The notes under the pieces are model-generated. The model was not told where the DNA came from. It saw nothing but the letters and a program-made list of their open reading frames with translations, and made no database searches. The translations under genes were made by a program, and so were the position numbers. A DNA stretch of 64,000 nt from Candidatus Altiarchaeia archaeon (lineage in GTDB: Archaea > Altiarchaeota > Altiarchaeia > IMC4 > QMZM01). The DNA lies in contig JBAQYF010000031.1 of NCBI GenBank assembly GCA_049299895.1, forward strand, positions 96,644-160,643, read 5' to 3'. This document shows positions 22,514-56,400 of the stretch, piece by piece (the first letter of the stretch is position 1; every line of letters starts with the position of its first letter).

Positions 22514-23608
22514 TTATTCCTTTTTCAGGTATATTGTTTGGGTGGGGAATGGTATCTCTATTTTCTCCCTGTTCAGGGCGTTGTATACGCCGGTGTTGAG
22601 TTCGTCGGTTATTTTGAGCTGGTCTTTGAAGCTCTCTATCCATGCTACCAGTAAGAAATTCAGGCTGGAGTCTGCGAATTCTTTGAAGAACACCTGGGGT
22701 TCAGGGTCTTTTAGGACTGAACTGCTTTTCATGGCTACGTCCATGACTGTTTTTTTGACTTTTTCAACGTCTGAACCGTAGGCTACGCCGAAGTTGATCA
22801 TGACTTTCAGCCTGGAATCAGGAAGAGCGTAATTCGTCACTTCGTTTATGACGACTTTTTCGTTGGGTATTATGACGAATGTGTGGTCCGGGGTCTGTAT
22901 CTTTGTCGTTCTCAGGCCTATGTCCACTACTTCGCCGCTAAATGAACCAACCTGTATGCGGTCTCCCCGCGCAAAGGGGCGGTCTACCAGGATGAAGAAA
23001 CCTGCCATCAGGTTTGAGAGGGTGTCTTTTGCCGCAAAACCTATCGCGATACCTGCTATCCCCAGGCTTGCGACAAGGGGTGTTATCTCTATTCCCAGTT
23101 GCGAGAGAATGATCATGACTCCAAGAGCGTATATCCCGAATTTTACCAGCTTTGACAGGAAGGGTATTGCTTCATCGTCCAGGGTGCTTTCGGTCTTTGA
23201 GGCTATCCGGCCCCCCAGTTCATTGATCAGTATGCTCGCGATCCCTGCCGTTACATAAGCAATGATGGATATGAACAGTATCGTTACCCCTTTAGTGAAA
23301 TAGGCCATATATGGGCTTCCCTGGAGCAGGTAATCTGCCGCTATTTGCACGCCCAGGAGGATTATGGCATAATATATGGGTTTATGTATCAATTCAAGTA
23401 TCAGGTCGTCTGCCCTGGTCTCGGTTTTCTCCGCGATCTTTTTAAAGTATTTCTCAACAAAGAAAAAGACAATCTTTGCCGCTATGACTGATGAAAGAAC
23501 GATTAAAACGGCTATAAGCAGGTTTTTGAAGGGAATAAGAGATTCCGGGAGATAACCAGTCATGCTTTGATCTATGATCTCTGCTATTTTGATAGTCTCA
23601 TTAGTCAT
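22514..23608 (-). CDS. Small-conductance mechanosensitive channel (MscS family)
   Basis: 'GIAIGFAAKDTLSNLMAGFFILVDRPFARGDRI' is the MscS pore/beta-domain signature. N-terminal TM helices. Confidence 0.85.
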   Translation of the reverse strand: MTNETIKIAEIIDQSMTGYLPESLIPFKNLLIAVLIVLSSVIAAKIVFFFVEKYFKKIAEKTETRADDLILELIHKPIYYAIILLGVQIAADYLLQGSPYMAYFTKGVTILFISIIAYVTAGIASILINELGGRIASKTESTLDDEAIPFLSKLVKFGIYALGVMIILSQLGIEITPLVASLGIAGIAIGFAAKDTLSNLMAGFFILVDRPFARGDRIQVGSFSGEVVDIGLRTTKIQTPDHTFVIIPNEKVVINEVTNYALPDSRLKVMINFGVAYGSDVEKVKKTVMDVAMKSSSVLKDPEPQVFFKEFADSSLNFLLVAWIESFKDQLKITDELNTGVYNALNREKIEIPFPTQTIYLKKE

Positions 23609-23845
23609 GATATCTATTAGGTTTAGGGGTTTTTAAGGTTTCCGCAGGGATGAATCACACTAGTCGCAAAAAAAGCCATATTAGCGTCGATTAGTCAGGA
23701 TTTACCAGGCTTTTAACCTGATAGAATCATGGATGGAAACGAAAGGTATTTATATGAGTCATGACTAAATCATAACTATCAAAAAATTATCATAGTTTAT
23801 CCAAGACAGACCCGCAGTTTAATCATGACATCGGGGGAATAAATC

Positions 23846-24322
23846 ATGAAACAACAAGATTCATACAGCGACGAATTCGACCAGCTCACGGGCGAGATAT
23901 CGGACGTAGTAGAGGAAATACCCGATCCAGTCGTCGTAGGAAAGCTCCTATACAACATAGCCTCAGAAAAGAAGAGCTATAACCTTGTCGTAAAGGACAT
24001 AAACGCCAAATTCGACCAGTTAGGCGAAAAACTCGACAGGATCGCGACCCTCCTTGAGAAGATGAGCGAGAAGAAGGAAGCAGTCGTGACTGAAAGAAGA
24101 GCAGAAAGCATAGAGATATCAGACAGAGACAAAGAGATACTCGACTTCGTCAAAGCCAGGAAAAGAGTCTGCGCGGACGACGTACAAGACAGGTTCCAGT
24201 ATAAGGGCAGGAACGCTGCGAGCGCGAGGCTCCACAGGCTGTACAGGGACAAGGTACTGGAAAAAGTGCACGCAGGAAGAAACGTATACTACACGATAAG
24301 AAATCAGGACCAACCGGCATAA
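23846..24322 (+). CDS. Small transcriptional regulator with C-terminal winged-helix domain
   Basis: The C-terminal 'DKEILDFVKARKRVCADDVQDRF...SARLHRLYRDKVLEKVHAGRNVYYTI' has a wHTH (MarR/TrmB-like) pattern. Confidence 0.55.
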   Translation: MKQQDSYSDEFDQLTGEISDVVEEIPDPVVVGKLLYNIASEKKSYNLVVKDINAKFDQLGEKLDRIATLLEKMSEKKEAVVTERRAESIEISDRDKEILDFVKARKRVCADDVQDRFQYKGRNAASARLHRLYRDKVLEKVHAGRNVYYTIRNQDQPA

Positions 24323-24328
24323 TTACAT

Positions 24329-24545
24329 TCAACCAACCACCTCCATCATGCTCCCCCGAAAGGGGGACTTGATGGTTATGATCAACCAACCACCTCCATT
24401 CCAACAATGCCCCCCGACAAGGGGGGCATGGAATGGTAAAAATCAACCAACCACCTCCATCATACTCCCCCGAAAGGGGGCATGATGGTTATGATCAACC
24501 AACCTCCTTCATTCTCTTCCCCATGCAGGGAAGAAATGGTAATCT
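24329..24545. repeat. Four tandem ~53-60 nt units: conserved box ATCAACCAACCACCTCC + hairpin with C5/G5 stem and GAAA-type loop
   Basis: Read directly from the sequence. Units start near 24329, 24381, 24442 and 24495. The stems differ between units but stay complementary (CCATCATGCTCCCCC/GGGGGACTTGATGG; CCATTCC..ATGCCCCCC/GGGGGGCATGGAATGG; CCATCATACTCCCCC/GGGGGCATGATGG). Confidence 0.9.
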
Positions 24546-24678
24546 TTCTGAGAATAATTCTTTTCTGGATGATGCCCACGGGGCGATAAAATAACGTAGT
24601 CGCAGCAATTCGGTTTATATTAAACAGAGCGTATTAAAGAATCAGTCATGACTGGTGCGCCGACAGAAGAACGCATAC

Positions 24679-25896
24679 TCAGTCAACTATCTGCGACACG
24701 AACCATTCCCGGTCGAACTTCTTCAGGTCTTCGTATTTCTGCCCCATCCCAACGTAGATAACGGGCTTGTTCGTCACATGGGATATCGACAGAGCCGCCC
24801 CGCCCTTTGCGTCCGCGTCCATCTTCGTGAGTATGATCGCGTCTATTCCTATCTCACTGTTGAATTTCTCGGCTTGATCCAAGGCGTCGTTTCCTGTGAG
24901 GGAGTCGCCGATGAATATCTTTAAGTCCGGTTTGTTTACGCGGACGATCTTTTTCATCTCGTCCATCAGGTTCACGTTCGTCTGCATCCTCCCTGCGGTG
25001 TCTGCGAGGACGACGTCTACGTTCCGGGCTTTTGCATGGGCCACTGCGTCGAACATGACTGCTGCGGCGTCGCCCGTCTTCTGGTGTTTTATGAGTTTTA
25101 CCCCTACTGAGTCGGCGTGTTTTTCTATCTGTTCTATCGCGCCTGCCCGGAATGTGTCCCCTGCTGCAAGCACGACGGAAAAGCCGTTGTTCATCAGCAT
25201 CCTTGCCATCTTTGCTATCGTCGTGGTCTTGCCTGTTCCGTTGACCCCGAAGAACACTATCTTGTAGGGCTTTTCCCCTTCGCGTATGGATCCAAGGAGG
25301 TCCACTTCATTGTCGGGTGTGAGAACGTCTATGAGCGTCTTTTTGATAGAGACCTTGATGTAGTGGTCGAGGCTGTCTTTGTCTATGTCCCGGTTCAAGA
25401 GGCGTTCTCTGAGGTCCCGGAGTATTGCTTCCGAAGTCTCCATCGCCACGTCGTTTTCGAGGAGGTCCATCTGCAGTTCTGTGAGCACGCCGTCCAGGTC
25501 TTTCTCGTTCAGCCTGATGGTTTTACGGAATATCCCTTTTATCTGGGTGATGGTGGAAAGCTTTACGCCCCCCTTATCGCCTGAGTCGCGCGAGGGAACG
25601 TCTTTTCTGTCCCATGCCTCCTGGATGGCATCAATCTTCTGTATCTCCCGGACCGCGGAATGTTTCTCTTTAACTGTCTCAGCGTCGGTTTTGACCGTTT
25701 CGTCCTGTATCCTGGACCTGGGAATCTCTTCCTTTTTGTCTACTTTGAAGTAGTCTTCTCCGGGTTCCCGGCTGACAGGCCTTGCCTCCTCGCGGGGGAC
25801 CGTAACCTGCGCCGAGAGTTCCTGGAACTCCTTTTCCGCTACTTCCTCGGTCTTGCCGATGAATTTATTTATTTTGTCCTTAAGAGACTTGAACAT
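24679..25896 (-). CDS. ftsY: Signal recognition particle receptor FtsY
   Basis: NG domain with 'GVNGTGKTTTIAKMA', 'DTAGR' and 'TKMDADAKGGAALS'. Acidic N-terminal region. Confidence 0.9.
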   Translation of the reverse strand: MFKSLKDKINKFIGKTEEVAEKEFQELSAQVTVPREEARPVSREPGEDYFKVDKKEEIPRSRIQDETVKTDAETVKEKHSAVREIQKIDAIQEAWDRKDVPSRDSGDKGGVKLSTITQIKGIFRKTIRLNEKDLDGVLTELQMDLLENDVAMETSEAILRDLRERLLNRDIDKDSLDHYIKVSIKKTLIDVLTPDNEVDLLGSIREGEKPYKIVFFGVNGTGKTTTIAKMARMLMNNGFSVVLAAGDTFRAGAIEQIEKHADSVGVKLIKHQKTGDAAAVMFDAVAHAKARNVDVVLADTAGRMQTNVNLMDEMKKIVRVNKPDLKIFIGDSLTGNDALDQAEKFNSEIGIDAIILTKMDADAKGGAALSISHVTNKPVIYVGMGQKYEDLKKFDREWFVSQIVD

Positions 25897-27381: not shown

Positions 27382-29280
27382 CTATACGAACCTCGGCCTC
27401 TCGGAAACATTCCTGGGAAGGGGAAGGGGCTTGTACGGCAGACCGGCTGTTTGACTCTTTACTTCGTCTATTAGTTCATTCAGGGTCATTTCTTTCTGTT
27501 CGCCTGTCGCTCTCACCCGGATCTTGTATTTCCCGCTCTTCTGCTCGTTCTCGCCGATAACAAGCGTGTAGGGGATCCATTCGGTCTCGGCTTCCCTTAT
27601 CTTCTTTCCGACCGTTTCATTGCGCTCGTCTATGTCCACGCGTATGCAGTTCTTCCCTATCTCGTCTGCTATTTCTTTTGTGTAATCGTTGAACTGCTCG
27701 TTCAATGGAGCAAGACGCACCTGGGTCGGCGACAGCCACACGGGGAGCATGGCTTTTTTGCCCTTCTGCGAATTGAGGTATGCCATTTCCAGGAGCGCGA
27801 AAACGTTCCGGTCTATGCTTCCAGAAATGCTCGCATGGAGCATAATGGGGTGTTTTTCCTTTCCTTCCGCGTCGATGTATTTTATCCCGAATCTTTCGGT
27901 ATTTTCAATGTCTATCTGCACGGTCGAGAGCGCAGATGCTTTGTTCAATGCGTCGACGAAGTTGAATTCGAATTTCATGACAAAGTAGAAGGGGCGCGAG
28001 TTCCACATCTCTATTATCACGGGTCTTCCTGCGAGCCTTACGAGTTCGTCCGCGAAATCCCTGTTTGCTTCGTAGAATTCGCGCACGAACCTTATCCCTA
28101 TTTCATATTCGACGCCCAGGTCTTCCATCCACTTCAACGAGAGCTTGAACTGCTTCAGGAATTCCTCCTTTGCACCGACCATGTCCTTTGTCAACGTGTG
28201 CATATCAGGCATGGTGAATGCCCTCAGCCGGCGCAGTCCCACCAGTTCTCCGCTCTTTTCGTAGCGGAAGCTGTAATGGGATAATTCATATAATCGGACA
28301 GGGAGGTGCTTGTATGATATGGTCATGTCATGCTTCATAAGGTATTGCCCGAAGCATGCTGCGAATCTCAGGAAGTATTCTTTTTCCCCGGACATCAGGC
28401 GGTACTGTCTTGCCGGGAAACGGTCCAGGTATTTGGACAGGCATGGATGGGCTATGTCATACATAATAGGTGTTTCCACCTGCATTCCCCCGAGGCCTGC
28501 GACTATGTTCGATACGCGCTCTTCGAGTAGCCTCTTTATCAATGAACCTTTTGGATACCAGCGCATGTTGCCCTGATCGCTCCCGGGCTCGTAATCTGCT
28601 ATCTCGTGTGCACGCATGTATTTTACGTGGGGAGGCTCCTGGTCTACTGCGCGCACTTTGTTGACTTCGTAGTCCGAGAACTTTTTTAAGTTCGTTTCTT
28701 CCTTTTTGAACTTGTATTCCGGGAGGGGTATGAGTTTGCCCTGCATGTCCAGTACGTACCACTCGGATTTAAGGGAGTCCTCTGTTTTGAGCGCCGCGGA
28801 TACGCGGGCTTCGGCTTTTTTCTCCTCCTTTGCTACGGATGCCGCCTCGGGGGCTATGCCTTCCGGGAGGATGGTCCTCGAAAGTTCCGACAGCGGGTGT
28901 CCCTTGCATTTTATCTCGAATCCCTTGTACCAGCCGAAAGGGGCCTTTATGACCTTGGCATCCTCTTTCTTCAATATTTCATAGGCGTCGTCCAGGACCT
29001 TTTTTGCAGTCTTCGGAGCCGACAGGGAGCTTGAAAGGTGGGCGTAGGGATACAATGCGATAGATGCAGCGGCAACGTCTTTTGCGGTCTTCTTTATTTC
29101 CGCGACCAGCTGGCTTGTAACGGAGTCCAGGCCGGATTCGTCGACTTTCTCCACTGCGATGAAGGCTACGAGAACGTTTTCAGCGGAGTCCTGGGTACCT
29201 GTCAGTTCCTCTGCGTCTTTTATGGCCTTCTTTTTAGCCTCAAATTTAATATAATCCGAATGTATCAGAAGAATTCGCAT
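27382..29280 (-). CDS. thrS: Threonyl-tRNA synthetase, archaeal type with N-terminal editing domain
   Basis: Start set at 'MRILLIHSDYIKFEAKKK', the archaeal ThrRS editing-domain N-terminus. Class II core with 'HRD' motifs and an anticodon-binding C-terminus. Confidence 0.85.
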   Translation of the reverse strand: MRILLIHSDYIKFEAKKKAIKDAEELTGTQDSAENVLVAFIAVEKVDESGLDSVTSQLVAEIKKTAKDVAAASIALYPYAHLSSSLSAPKTAKKVLDDAYEILKKEDAKVIKAPFGWYKGFEIKCKGHPLSELSRTILPEGIAPEAASVAKEEKKAEARVSAALKTEDSLKSEWYVLDMQGKLIPLPEYKFKKEETNLKKFSDYEVNKVRAVDQEPPHVKYMRAHEIADYEPGSDQGNMRWYPKGSLIKRLLEERVSNIVAGLGGMQVETPIMYDIAHPCLSKYLDRFPARQYRLMSGEKEYFLRFAACFGQYLMKHDMTISYKHLPVRLYELSHYSFRYEKSGELVGLRRLRAFTMPDMHTLTKDMVGAKEEFLKQFKLSLKWMEDLGVEYEIGIRFVREFYEANRDFADELVRLAGRPVIIEMWNSRPFYFVMKFEFNFVDALNKASALSTVQIDIENTERFGIKYIDAEGKEKHPIMLHASISGSIDRNVFALLEMAYLNSQKGKKAMLPVWLSPTQVRLAPLNEQFNDYTKEIADEIGKNCIRVDIDERNETVGKKIREAETEWIPYTLVIGENEQKSGKYKIRVRATGEQKEMTLNELIDEVKSQTAGLPYKPLPLPRNVSERPRFV

Positions 29281-53450: not shown

Positions 53451-56400
53451 ATGAAAACAGTCCTCCAAGTATCCCTTAACTCCCTCGACCTGCAGGAAGC
53501 GCTCAGCATAGCGGAAAAAGCCGCAAACGAGGGGATCACCTGGATAGAGGTTGGAAGCAGCCTGATAAAAGCAGCAGGCCTCGCCGCCGTAACCGAACTA
53601 CGCAAAAGATACCCCAACGCCAGGATAACTGCGGACATGAAGATAATCCATTCCCCGGAAGAAGTCTCCGCCGTCGCAGACGCAGGCGCAGACATAATGA
53701 TGTTCTTTTCCGGAACAGACGAAGGATTGGTCCGCGAATGCGTAAAAGCCGCCAAGGCCGCCGATATCGAGCTGATGGCAGACATCTACACAAGCGTTTT
53801 TCCAACCGGAGACGCAAAGAGATTCGAGGACCTCGGAGTAAACTACTTGTTCACAAGGTCCCAAGACCTGAAAAACGTAGCTTCTTCCGTACGGATACCC
53901 GTAGCCGTGCCTATTGGAAGAGACCCTGAAGCCGCCAAAAAGGCCGTCGAAAACGGAGCAAAAATACTCAACATAAGCGACTTTCCGAAAAGGGAGAGAA
54001 TAAACAACTTTTTGGATAGAGTCCCCGGGCTACATGAGGGGGAAGATACAAAGCCGGAACCCACATACCCAAAAACCGCACCCGCAAATAAACAGATCCC
54101 TTATACAACAGCCCCAACGCCCGCTAAAGCCGCATCATCCGAATCACTTGGTTCTGCCCCGGTCCTGTCCGAATTCGAAAGACTCAACCAGCTATTCCTG
54201 AACCTCGAAGAAAAACGCAAGATAGAGGAAAACAAGAGGATACTCCTGGAAAGGAATATCGAGAACAAAGAAAAAGAGCACCGAGAGATACTGGAAAACG
54301 AAAGGAAACGAGTGGATGAGGAGATAGCAAAGATAGAATCGGAAAAAGAGGACATACGCAGATACCGGGAAAAACTGGAAAAAGATTCCGCTGAAACAGA
54401 ACAGCAAAGAAAACGCATAGTAGAAGAATGGGGAAGGATAAAGCAGGCCGAGATATCGTTCGAAGACACCCAGAAGCGCAAGCTGGAAGAATACAACGCC
54501 AAAAAAGAAGAGATCTGGAAGAAATGGGAAGAAGACCAGAAAAAGAGATGGATGAACGCATCCGCGGAAATAGATGAAGAAAAGAAGAAGACAGAAGCCC
54601 GATGGGCTGACCTGGAGGACCTCGGGAAGAGAATAGACGCAGAAAAAAAGAAACTAGAAGAACAAAATGCGTCAATCAGCCAGGACAAGTCCGAAACAGA
54701 AAAGAGATTCCAGGAAGTGGCGAATCTGCGCAAACTACATGAAAGCAACCTTGCACTGCTGGAGGAGGACAGAAGGCAGATAGAGGAGCAGAAAAAATAC
54801 ATCGAAGAACAGAAAAAATACGTAGACGAACAGAAAGCCTCTTTCGACAGCAAATGGAACGAATACAAGGCGGGGCTGGAAGCAAACCTTGAAGAACAGA
54901 AAAAAACGCTGGAAGCTCAAAAACTCATCCTGTCAGAGGAAAAACTGCAGGTAAAATCAGAAAAACAGGACATAGAAAAACTAAAGCTGGACGTTTCCGA
55001 AGAGCTGGAAAAAGCAAGAAAGAAAAGAGAGGAAGCAGAAGAACTGCAAAGACAGGCTGCCGAAGAACGAAACAGGATAGAAGAAAGGATAACGGAAGAG
55101 CAAAAGAAGCTGGAAGAAAAACTGTCCGCAGAGCAGAAAAAAATAGAAGACCGCCAAATAGAGATAGAAGCAAGAGAAGAAGAAGCCTACAAGGCCGCGG
55201 AGATAATCGAAAAAGCCAAGAGCATAACCCAGGAAATGCTCATGGTAGAAGAAGAGGCAAGGAAGGCGGAACAGAAATGGAAGGAAGTGTCCCAGGCGGA
55301 AAAAAGGATCCGGGAAACGGAAAGAAAGATAGACGAGCAACAGAGAAACAGAAAACAAGAACTACAGGAACTGGAGAAGGAACGCTGGATGCTCCATGAC
55401 GAACTCAAAAAGATAGAGAACAACTGGACCACGCTCGCCGAGATAGAGAAAAAACAGGAAGAAGAAAAGAGGATACTCGACCAAGAGCGCGCGGAAAACG
55501 CGGAACACAGAAAGTGCATAGAGGAAGAATTCAAAAAGATCGAAGGGCAGGAAAAAGAGCGTAAGGACTCCGAAGGCGTATTCGAGCAAGCGCAGCAGGG
55601 GAAGCTGAAGGAATACCAAAAGAAAAACGAAGAAGCCTGGAACGCCTGGGAAGGAGACCAAAAGAAGATATGGAGAGAAGAATTCGAAAAGATCGAAAAC
55701 GAACGCAAAAAGCTCGAATTAGAAAAAGCCGAACTCAAAACAAAGGTTGCACAGATACAACTTGAATCCTGGAAAACCGCGGAAGAGTCGCAAAAGATAG
55801 AGAAAAAACTTTCCCTGGCAGAAGAAAAAGAGAAGATAACAGAAGACAACCTAAGGAGAATCACTGAAAAAGAGTACAGCCAAAGGGAGCTGATAGAAGA
55901 GATAGAAAAAGAGCGCTGGAGAATACACGACGAACTGCAGAAGGTCGAGAAAAGCTGGGCTTCCATCAAGGAGATAGAGAAAAAATACGAAAAAGACAAG
56001 GAGTCCATCGTAAAAGACCGCCTGTTCATCGAAGAACAGAAAAAGAAACTCGAGGCAGACGAACGGAACCTGGAAGAGGAATACGCCAAACTCAAATCGG
56101 AGTTGGAATCGTTCGAGAACCAAAAGAGAAACCACCTCGAAAGCCTGCGGGAGAGAGAAGAAGAACTGTCCGGGATACACGGAAAGACTGATGAAGGGGC
56201 CTTGCGGCGCAGGGAAGAGATTGAGTGCATAGAGAAGGAGCGCTGGAAAATAGACGCAGAAACGCGCAGCATAGAAGCCAAATGGGCGCAGGTAAAGGAA
56301 TCAGAGAAAAAGCTTGAAACAGACAGGAACAGCATAGCGCAGGAAAGAGAATACCTCGACGAGATAAAGAAGAAGATAGAGGATGAAGCAATCAAACTCG

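Follow-up and report, generated by a model that had tools for sequence, protein, structure and literature searches.

Small RNAs of the RsaE/RoxS type in Firmicutes are characterized by exposed C-rich motifs complementary to Shine-Dalgarno (SD) sequences, several of which occur per RNA, and by stable hairpins and a U-rich 3' tail. Other bacterial systems couple an RNA to a regulator gene, either as a small RNA derived from a 3' untranslated region (3'UTR), such as CpxQ from cpxP, or as a pair of transcription factor and small RNA, such as OxyR-OxyS, SgrR-SgrS, and GcvA-GcvB; these systems are Hfq-dependent and the pairs are mostly divergent. Repeated single-stranded motifs between hairpins, present in variable number, are known from the CsrB/RsmZ sponges and from the 15-lipoxygenase differentiation control element (DICE) read by KH proteins, and the lambda nut and rrn boxA-boxB sites combine a single-stranded box with an adjoining hairpin that has a GNRA-like loop and are read on the nascent RNA. 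Among repeats, repetitive extragenic palindromic sequences and bacterial interspersed mosaic elements (REP/BIME) consist of imperfect palindromes that are arranged in tandem, have a short and conserved single-stranded head, and occupy gaps after genes that are often convergent; their stems tolerate compensatory change, and roles in mRNA 3'-end stability and termination have been proposed for them. To our knowledge, very few regulatory RNAs have been described for the uncultivated Altiarchaeota, Micrarchaeota, and Iainarchaeota. Archaeal small RNAs that mask ribosome-binding sites (RBSs) are represented by sRNA154 of Methanosarcina mazei, through its loop 2, and by sRNA41 (PMC5867862). Here, we describe a tandem array of box-hairpin units directly behind the gene of a 158-amino-acid (aa) winged-helix protein in a Candidatus Altiarchaeia archaeon. 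The analysis was based on a stretch of 64,000 nucleotides (contig JBAQYF010000031.1, positions 96,644 to 160,643; hereafter the window, whose first letter is position 1) and on related loci from other genomes. The array does not represent a mobile repeat; throughout the Altiarchaeota, the element is located behind the stop codon of a single conserved transcription factor gene.

The array resembles the anti-RBS and C-rich-seed small RNAs (sRNA154 and sRNA41; RsaE/RoxS) in its several exposed, SD-complementary C-rich motifs and in the combination of stable hairpins with a U-rich 3' tail, but has no sequence or Rfam relationship to them. It also differs from them in following a protein gene directly, with no space for a promoter of its own, and in its longer motif, CCAACCACC[U/C]CC, which in the Altiarchaeota lies 5' of the hairpin and not in a loop. 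Exposed motifs complementary to SD sequences are thus found, but the boxes of many Altiarchaeota read CCACCCCC. As in the CpxQ and OxyS systems an RNA is coupled to a regulator gene, physically and probably also in its transcription, and as in CpxQ this RNA would come from the 3' end of an mRNA at a hairpin and U tail; here, however, archaeal phyla share the pairing of array and gene, and the RNA has a modular build of one to six repeated units. The architecture shared with REP/BIME elements contrasts with their hundreds of dispersed copies spread by RAYT transposases, whereas the array occupies one syntenic locus per examined segment. The likeness to CsrB/RsmZ and DICE is an analogy only, as the motif of the array is C/A-rich and not GGA, and we know of no CsrA in archaea. 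The nut sites, finally, are single and lie upstream of the terminators that are overridden, whereas the array is tandem, archaeal, and located at the 3' end of a gene, and shows no sequence similarity to them.

Genomic Context and Phylogenetic Distribution

The array comprises four head-to-tail units at positions 24328-24545 of the window, in the convergent gap between the winged-helix gene on the plus strand and ftsY on the minus strand, and each unit combines a C/A-rich box, TCAACCAACCACCTCC, with a GC-rich hairpin on its 3' side (Table 1). This arrangement had been proposed in an earlier note on the same DNA and was recovered by direct reading, box search, tandem repeat detection with TRF, and folding; the end of the array was as given there, whereas its start had to be moved by one nucleotide, from 24329 to 24328.

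Table 1. Positions of the array, its units, and associated features (window coordinates unless a locus is named).
Feature	Position	Strand	Description
Promoter	23747-23765	+	TATA-like TATTTATAT at 23747-23755, then palindrome GTCATGAC at 23758-23765; presumed autoregulatory operator
158-aa protein	23846-24322	+	Three long N-terminal helices and C-terminal winged helix-turn-helix
Unit 1	24328-24380	+	Box TTCAACCAACCACCTCC at 24328-24344; hairpin 24343-24375, CCAUCA..CCCCC-GAAA-GGGGG..UGAUGG, folding z -5.2; spacer UUAUG
Unit 2	24381-24441	+	Box ATCAACCAACCACCTCC at 24381-24397; two-tier hairpin 24396-24436, CCAUUCC / internal loop / UGCCCCCC-GACAA-GGGGGGCA / GGAAUGG with CCCCCC/GGGGGG core, folding z -8.4
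Unit 3	24442-24493	+	Box ATCAACCAACCACCTCC at 24442-24458; hairpin 24457-24488, CCAUCAU..CCCCC-GAAA-GGGGG.AUGAUGG, folding z -4.6; spacer UUAUG
Unit 4, degenerate	24494-24545	+	Box ATCAACCAACCTCCTTC at 24494-24510; weaker hairpin at ~24510-24538, loop CAUGCA, folding z -3.0
U/C-rich tail	24539-24575	+	GUAAUCUUUCUGAGAAUAAUUCUUUUCUGG, after last hairpin; possible archaeal-type oligo-U termination zone of the sense transcript
Second palindrome	24645-24652		GTCATGAC, between array and ftsY stop, ~27 nt beyond that stop
ftsY	24679-25896	-	Signal recognition particle receptor (PF02881, PF00448); closest named homologues in Candidatus Altiarchaeota; frequent neighbour, outside the element
Insert between units, locus L089	3349-3390, 3449-3498, 3557-3594, 3654-3692		Four copies of AUCAAUACUCCUGAAGGAGUAAACUCUCAAAAUCAAAGAUUUUGCG
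Conserved GCUGGCAAGGCGACC after the gene			L033, L035-L040, L043, L046, L048, L049, L055, L058, L063, L064, L068, L070, L072, L078

Related loci were gathered by exact-protein look-ups, by scanning a genome collection with an alignment of the 158-aa family, and by a metagenome scan with a 19-mer of the box; the counts derived from the genome-collection scan, for the Altiarchaeota as well as for the Micrarchaeota and Iainarchaeota, hold among the matches listed (80 loci). In about 30 Altiarchaeota loci and three metagenome contigs, the units start 0-40 nt past the stop codon of the winged-helix orthologue, lie on its sense strand, number one to six, and occur in front of any downstream gene. 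Within the 330 nt after the gene, the pattern of box and hairpin was present in 21 of 23 Altiarchaeota genomes, and a box match was absent from this interval in L019 and L028. In the other 21 genomes, between one and four boxes that read (AAUU)CAGCCAACCACC[U/C]CC or CCCCAACCACCCC each precede a GC-rich hairpin, and the hairpin sequences are unrelated. A simple box pattern was found on the sense strand 0-300 nt past the stop codon in 22 of 24 Altiarchaeota loci, and it gave about seven stray matches in roughly 2 x 230 kb. Close relatives possess the same array with three to six units (L001, L002, L003, L089, L094, and L099), while L006, whose FtsY shares 67% identity, has one full unit, composed of CAGCCAACCACCUCC and CCACCCCCCC-GUAA-GGGGGGGUGG, plus one degenerate unit. 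The metagenome scan retrieved three true arrays of five to six units (L089, L094, and L099), all directly behind the orthologue, and nine singletons without hairpin or gene, which is about the chance expectation.

A covariance model (R1) built from 16 units of 13 loci, run with filters off, detected unit 1 (24326-24389, E 3.8e-5) and unit 3 (24440-24502, E 8.6e-6) and nothing else below E 0.5 in the 64-kb window. In 32 related loci it gave 52 matches with E <=1, of which 47 lay on the sense strand directly behind the gene. The best of the other five (E 0.07) was also in sense orientation, about 90 nt upstream of the stop codon inside the gene of L021; the four antisense matches all had E >=0.46. 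The downstream neighbours vary and include ftsY, small membrane proteins, a pilin-like protein, and a deacetylase-like gene, and no array was found at the ftsY genes of L004 and L005 that do not adjoin a winged-helix gene. Because of these varying neighbours and the lack of an array at ftsY alone, the element belongs to the winged-helix gene and not to ftsY.

The spacing between boxes ranges from 17 to ~100 nt between species. In L089, an insert of ~45 nt with two small hairpins of its own is repeated four times between units, and the array therefore appears to have grown by duplication of composite units. Between the units of L011, L015, L017, L021, and L029, a further, conserved small hairpin, AUCACAUC-loop-GAUGUGGU, which contains a U.G wobble, is followed by GUAAUUCAGCCAACCACC; in these Altiarchaeota only its 5' half, AUCACAUCACCCCAACCACC, precedes the first unit.

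Conservation of the Box and of Hairpin Pairing

The 17-nt box of the window clade, ATCAACCAACCACCTCC, occurs exactly at 24381 and 24442 in a search of the 64-kb window, with one mismatch at 24328 (TTCAACC...), and with two at 24494 in the degenerate unit 4. Only one further match with <=3 mismatches was found in the 64 kb, on the opposite strand at 28302; five box matches were reached in 0 of 100 dinucleotide shuffles, and TRF reported an array of period 61 with 2.9 copies. In every unit the box overlaps the base of the hairpin. Stems with C5-6/G5-6 runs and loops of GAAA or GACAA, as previously described, are present in units 1-3; a degenerate last unit like unit 4 was also found in L003, L094, and L099. 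Hairpins 1-3 are followed by UUAUGA or UAAAAA, hairpin 4 by U/C-rich sequence with UUU and UUUU as its only U runs. Beyond the tail, a block of ~30 nt at 24590-24628, CGCAGCAAUUCGGUUUAUAUUAAACAGAG, is common to the window and L002 (~1600-1640 of that locus) and contains a small hairpin, GGUUUA-UAU-UAAACA.

Across species, the box has the conserved core CCAACCACC[U/C]CC, which in the window clade includes CACCUCC and in most Altiarchaeota is part of the box CAGCCAACCACCCC. As the earlier note had pointed out, CACCUCC equals the 3' tail of 16S rRNA, an identity that we take from established knowledge of 16S rRNA. In predicted folds of the sense strand, the CACCUCC of the box is unpaired.

The hairpins are conserved in a different manner: their arms show no sequence similarity between lineages, but pairing is kept. 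A region of 251 nt spanning the array folded far better than shuffled sequences on the two strands (z -6.6 and -5.4), single units reached z-scores of -3.0 to -8.4, and the array is one of only three places in the whole window with perfect GC-rich hairpins of at least 8 bp. Among 62 non-identical segments of 52 nt that were picked by box position alone, 90% had z < -2, with a median of -5.3. Pairing was also assessed in a sequence-based MAFFT alignment (A4) of 16 units from 13 loci over seven basal pairs, in which 82% of the basal-helix cells form a standard pair, compared to 37-61% after a shift of the partner by 1-3 columns. Thirteen cells had changed on both sides, a number reached by none of 500 shuffles, and the covariation score was 0.317 versus 0.200 in shuffled alignments, with 1 of 500 reaching it and slid controls remaining at <=0.098.

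Individual exchanges illustrate this pattern. In the second hairpin, CCGUAAC/GUUACGG of L016 corresponds to CCGCAAU/AUUGCGG of L025, which amounts to two double changes; the outermost C-G of L013 is U-A in L020, and an A-U of L026 is G.U in L022. Among orthologues of unit 2 (L002, L009, L089, and L099), the outer helix is kept and the inner one varies, with one compensatory change of C-G to U-A in addition to U.G wobbles. The near-identical strain L001 has an indel variant of the unit 3 hairpin that retains pairing. Close strains and orthologues otherwise differ mostly by C-to-U wobbles, indels, and loop changes, and clear double compensatory changes occur only across more distant species. The notion that both arms change together is therefore borne out between distant species by alignment A4, whereas the differences seen within the window are differences between paralogous units. 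With the box kept throughout the phylum and the hairpin arms replaced yet paired, the sequence comparisons support selection on structure and not on hairpin sequence, in agreement with the earlier proposal, for which both folding and homologue covariation speak.

Strand of the Element

Several features favor the sense strand of the winged-helix gene, among them the constant position of the element right behind the stop codon. In the sequence-based alignments, U.G wobbles outnumber C.A mismatches by 7 to 1, and in ungapped stems G:T combinations outnumber A:C by 12 to 5, while the sense-strand loops of the window clade are often of the GNRA type (GAAA, GCAA, and GUAA). Past the last hairpin, related loci show ..UUCUCAUU(U/C)U.., a tail that is also represented in the consensus of the covariance model. 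At several loci a gene on the same strand begins ~20 nt past the last hairpin, which leaves no space for an antisense promoter. Since there is also no room for a promoter between the stop codon and the first box, the RNA is most simply regarded as the 3' end of the winged-helix mRNA. The sense strand is thus the probable, though not proven, strand of the element, and we are fairly confident that the array is a conserved, gene-linked, structured RNA element that is probably encoded on this strand.

Counterparts in Micrarchaeota and Iainarchaeota

Homologues of the 158-aa protein also occur in Micrarchaeota and Iainarchaeota, and the genome-collection scan contributed 57 loci of these groups and their relatives. 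CACCTCC was present on the sense strand <=250 nt downstream of the homologue in 15 of the 57 loci, compared to an expectation of 0.65 (P ~7e-16), and on the antisense strand of the same 250 nt in none of the 57; the core noted earlier in the window thus recurs behind the homologous gene of other phyla. In these loci, the loop that contains the motif ..AUUCACCUCCCAC.. is closed by a stem that varies in sequence between genomes, and a U-rich tail follows. The Iainarchaeota-type loci keep UUCAGCC..CCACCUCC and a tail of the type ..UUUCUCAUUU. The best match of R1 in 484 kb of these loci, in L052, had an E-value of 0.09 and was located exactly at the stop codon of the gene, and a 23-nt box profile searched with nhmmer against the DPANN-type loci gave a best E-value of 0.71 at the right place, the profile being too short for significance. 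Homology of the Micrarchaeota and Iainarchaeota motif to the Altiarchaeota element is likely, but not established.

In 19 loci of Micrarchaeota type (Table 1), a conserved GCUGGCAAGGCGACC is found 10-80 nt after the gene, and a structured region of ~100-200 nt with a CACCUCCCAC loop follows. The version of the Micrarchaeota looks like a motif embedded in a larger RNA that starts with GCUGGCAAGGCGACC, that is, a longer relative of the same RNA. Rfam gave no match for the GCUGGCAAGGCGACC region, E-value mode on the counterpart remained at chance level, and RNAalifold recovered no structure from the Micrarchaeota counterparts, the alignment being too poor. Two further sequence similarities were observed: the Altiarchaeota loci L013, L014, and L020 keep AUCACGCUGGCAA just before the first box, and the Iainarchaeota-type locus L054 contains AACCCAACCACCUCCAUUCC, nearly identical to the box and first stem bases of unit 2, in the 5' region of the homologue (~4923-4947).

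The Winged-Helix Protein and Its Promoter

The 158-aa protein is identical to one encoded in a metagenome-assembled genome of a Candidatus Altiarchaeia archaeon and belongs to a lineage-specific family with about 40 members in protein databases (42 homologues were found), which stem from Altiarchaeota and relatives, the named ones being Altiarchaeota. The family alignment shows invariant residues within the winged helix, for which the AlphaFold model has a predicted local distance difference test score (pLDDT) of ~90 (77 overall). The best Foldseek matches were ArsR/SmtB and BlaI/MecI repressors; Pfam and NCBIfam models gave only sub-threshold matches of BlaI and ArsR type (19 vs 22.6 bits and 18.9 vs 55 bits).

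The TATA box of the gene is directly followed by GAGUCAUGACUAAAUCAUAA, and 22 of 25 Altiarchaeota loci have GTCATGAC ahead of the ATG. The homologues in Micrarchaeota and Iainarchaeota have tandem palindromes of the TCATGA type after their TATA box, and several orthologues are apparently leaderless. A TATA box followed by a palindrome would correspond to the classic layout of an archaeal autorepressor, and judging from sequence and fold the protein looks like an autoregulated DNA-binding factor and not obviously like a reader of the box. The C/A-rich box is unlikely to be its DNA operator, because the conserved operator is the promoter palindrome, GTCATGAC or of TCATGA type.

Only two copies of GTCATGAC exist in the 64-kb window, at 23758 and 24645, and they bracket the winged-helix gene and the array. 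The downstream copy is found at the same place in L002, L003, L004, L006, and L094 and is missing in most other Altiarchaeota; in L002 and L003 it is doubled with a spacing of 17 nt and extends over the region of the ftsY stop codon. It is preceded by GTATTAAAGAATCA, which is similar to the TATA region of the promoter. This second palindrome may be a roadblock or a control site of an antisense promoter.

Comparison with Known RNA Families and Repeats

No match to Rfam 15 was obtained in the window at gathering thresholds, and in 14 related loci only tRNAs located elsewhere were found. In E-value mode the best match reached 18.7 bits compared to a threshold of 100 (Virus_CITE_3), and all matches were at chance level. 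The window contains no tRNA or tmRNA, and nothing relevant was found in the literature on non-coding RNA of Altiarchaeota or on the box sequence. By the sequence evidence, the RNA family appears to be new, occurring phylum-wide and in fixed partnership with a transcription factor gene.

A miniature repeat, one of the roles considered in the earlier note, was dismissed: dispersed copies of a miniature inverted-repeat transposable element (MITE) or REP were found neither in the 64 kb, nor in ~225 kb of related loci, nor in the metagenome-wide 19-mer scan, and all real matches lie behind the winged-helix orthologue. Because the matches sit only behind this orthologue, the array is not MITE-, REP-, or CRISPR-like. 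No terminal inverted repeats or target-site duplications flank it, and its head is unrelated to GTAG. A CRISPR array was likewise rejected, as its variable segments would have to be spacers but form hairpins with orthologues in other strains, and the conserved part measures 17-18 nt; CRISPR-DR models gave E-values of 7.6-9.8 only, in a comparison that did not include a search for cas genes. A ToxI-like type III antitoxin was rejected as well, since the hairpins differ between units and the array lies downstream of the winged-helix gene, and no toxin-like gene was seen downstream of the units, where the neighbours are ftsY and membrane or other proteins.

Other Features of the Window

A further pair of tandem GC-rich hairpins is located at 3237-3256 and 3303-3322, starting 5 nt past the stop codon of open reading frame (ORF) 1943-3232. 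Their sequences are CCCCACAG-CAAG-CUGUGGGG and CCCAUGCUG-CAA-GCAGCGGGG, with a GCAAGC centre in both and tails of the GGGGUAUU type, and no C/A-rich box is found beside them. They may represent a second kind of 3'-end hairpin element in the genome. A 1807-aa ORF at 53451-58874 lies in a stretch with an extreme A-over-T skew of 0.61-0.67 and many short A/G-rich tandem repeats and probably encodes a repetitive, charged protein.

Proposed Function and Alternative Explanations

We propose that the array is the local form of a conserved sense-strand structured RNA module, which would arise by co-transcription as the 3' part of the winged-helix mRNA. Each unit would display its C/A-rich box as a single strand, with a stable GC-rich hairpin immediately on the 3' side. 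The hairpins and the tail would end the transcript and block 3'-to-5' decay, and a small RNA borne by the 3'UTR would result in the form of a stable 3' fragment. Its exposed boxes would act as recognition sites, most likely as seeds: as the motif corresponds to the 16S 3' tail, it would pair with G-rich, SD-like mRNA sequences and could mask the ribosome-binding sites of target mRNAs in the manner of the Methanosarcina and Firmicutes small RNAs. Alternatively, the boxes may be protein sites. Should the factor repress the promoter of its own gene, it would be produced together with the RNA, and the two would constitute a mixed protein-RNA regulatory module. Among the roles listed in the earlier note, a small structured RNA and a box of the anti-SD type both stay viable. 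Transcription, 3' end formation, processing, base-pairing targets, and autoregulation are what we infer here, and the statement as a whole, a co-transcribed 3' RNA module with hairpins that protect the 3' end and boxes that serve as pairing or binding sites, is favored tentatively, with a confidence that falls somewhat short of even. The pairing-seed mechanism in particular is appreciably more doubtful.

A number of observations weigh against this proposal. Folding energy does not separate the strands, which fold about equally well (Wilcoxon p 0.72), and G.U pairs in the minimum-free-energy folds show no asymmetry (32 vs 35). A scan of 23600-25000 for bacterial-type terminators (>=5 U in 8) on both strands returned 0 sites, and the T runs past the last hairpin are short and not universal: runs of >=4 within 60 nt occur in 12 of 18 loci, runs of >=5 in five of the 18 (L013, L015, L016, L018, and the near-identical pair L026/L027, taken as one), and the longest run past the array in the window is TTTT (24561-24564). 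With regard to pairing, SD-like motifs precede only about 8 of the 65 long ORFs in the window, and the 64 kb yielded no extended complement of the box and hence no target. The 5' region of the gene itself likewise showed no conserved complement, and several orthologues appear to be leaderless. Many Altiarchaeota boxes are CCACCCCC, an imperfect copy of the 16S 3' end, so that CCAACCACC, and not the anti-SD heptamer, is the most conserved part of the element; the 64-kb window holds no rRNA from which the 16S 3' end of the host could be read.

The alternatives can be ordered by likelihood, from a purely cis-acting 3'-end module over an rRNA-tail mimic, a DNA site, and a minus-strand SD signal to a mobile or defence-related repeat. 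In the cis-acting version, which is unlikely but the most serious of the five, the units would terminate the winged-helix mRNA or shield it from exonucleases, and would do the same for that of ftsY where the genes converge, without any role in trans. The box would be part of the signal for termination or stability and could, for example, bind a KH-domain factor (NusA or aCPSF1/FttA). Such a role would fit the U/C-rich tail past the last hairpin and a unit number that varies from one to six under no obvious constraint. It would also fit the complete filling of the convergent gap at several loci: in L012, L015, and L031, 7-14 nt separate the last hairpin from the stop codon of ftsY or another convergent gene. 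The hairpins right after the stop codon of ORF 1943-3232, with their GCAAGC loop and GGGGUAUU tail, point in the same direction, and because of them 3'-end hairpins may be used more widely in the genome. A generic terminator would, however, leave unexplained why a single-stranded sequence of 9-12 nt is kept across the phylum, and in part beyond it, at one gene only; the other hairpins of the window lack the box, and archaeal termination needs oligo-U and not hairpins, whereas T runs are short or absent in some loci. Quite improbable is a mimic of the rRNA 3' end that binds a protein reading the 16S tail, or the winged-helix protein itself, for autogenous control or titration, comparable to ribosomal-protein operons that carry rRNA mimics and to protein sponges of the CsrB type. 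The CACCUCC core beside the same gene in Altiarchaeota, Micrarchaeota, and Iainarchaeota and the multiple boxes, predicted to be exposed and single-stranded, would agree with it, and invariant protein residues always adjacent to an invariant RNA motif would suit a direct partnership. Yet the protein already has a DNA site, the promoter palindrome, and a fold like that of DNA-binding repressors, and boxes of the form CCACCCCC would be imperfect mimics.

The remaining explanations are weaker still. An element acting at the DNA level, with iterated protein sites on double- or single-stranded DNA or with palindromes that serve as cruciform, as roadblock between convergent genes, or as replication or segregation site, is very improbable. 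In its favor are the regular spacing of the conserved box, the neighbouring gene for a DNA-binding factor, the second operator palindrome that the window clade has right behind the array, and the equal stability of the hairpins on either strand. Against it, the box is not a palindrome and keeps a strict orientation to the gene, the conserved operator of the factor has a different sequence, and inter-box spacing varies from 17 to ~100 nt between species. Compensatory and wobble changes argue for a single-stranded nucleic acid, and neither an AT-rich unwinding region nor an orc1/cdc6 context was seen. The earlier note had also pointed to the minus strand, on which each hairpin would precede the SD sequence GGAGGUG and a micro-ORF M(M)EVVG-stop; read in this way, or as a ribosome decoy in the 3'UTR of ftsY, the array makes a highly implausible functional element. 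Units 1-3 do contain these sequences literally, and the two strands fold equally well. The micro-ORF, however, is not conserved, because the reverse complement of CAGCCAACCACCCC lacks ATG and stop; in most Altiarchaeota the reverse-complemented box, GGGGUGGUUGGCUG, has no ATG or in-frame stop. The orientation always follows the winged-helix gene, the element is present without ftsY downstream, and it is missing behind ftsY genes that lack an adjacent winged-helix gene. Least credible of all is a mobile or defence-related repeat, be it a MITE, a REP/BIME-like element, a degenerate CRISPR, or a type III antitoxin RNA. The tandem array with palindromic parts and the unit numbers that differ between strains would be in line with such an origin, but dispersed copies were not found, the same locus is occupied across the phylum, and the variable parts are hairpins orthologous between strains and not unique spacers.

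Implications

The putatively co-transcribed RNA module represents a candidate RNA family with a fixed genomic address behind one conserved, apparently self-repressed gene, one to six modular units, and a single-stranded motif that is kept over very large distances and in many lineages equals the anti-SD tail of 16S rRNA. The R1 model and the alignments would allow an RNA-database entry and searches in metatranscriptomes. If the RNA is expressed, it would offer a handle on post-transcriptional control in these archaea and an example of a transcription factor and a riboregulator that are inherited as one unit. If the array is only a 3'-end or terminator module, it would constitute a sequence-specific signal with hairpins that lies outside the current oligo-U picture of archaeal termination. 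A more far-reaching and rather unlikely possibility is an ancient module of transcription factor and riboregulator shared by Altiarchaeota and DPANN-type archaea, in which a mimic of the ribosome tail would act globally on translation, either by occupying the SD sequences of many mRNAs or by titrating a factor that reads the 16S 3' tail. Should this be true, such a mimic would be a new class of archaeal translational regulator.

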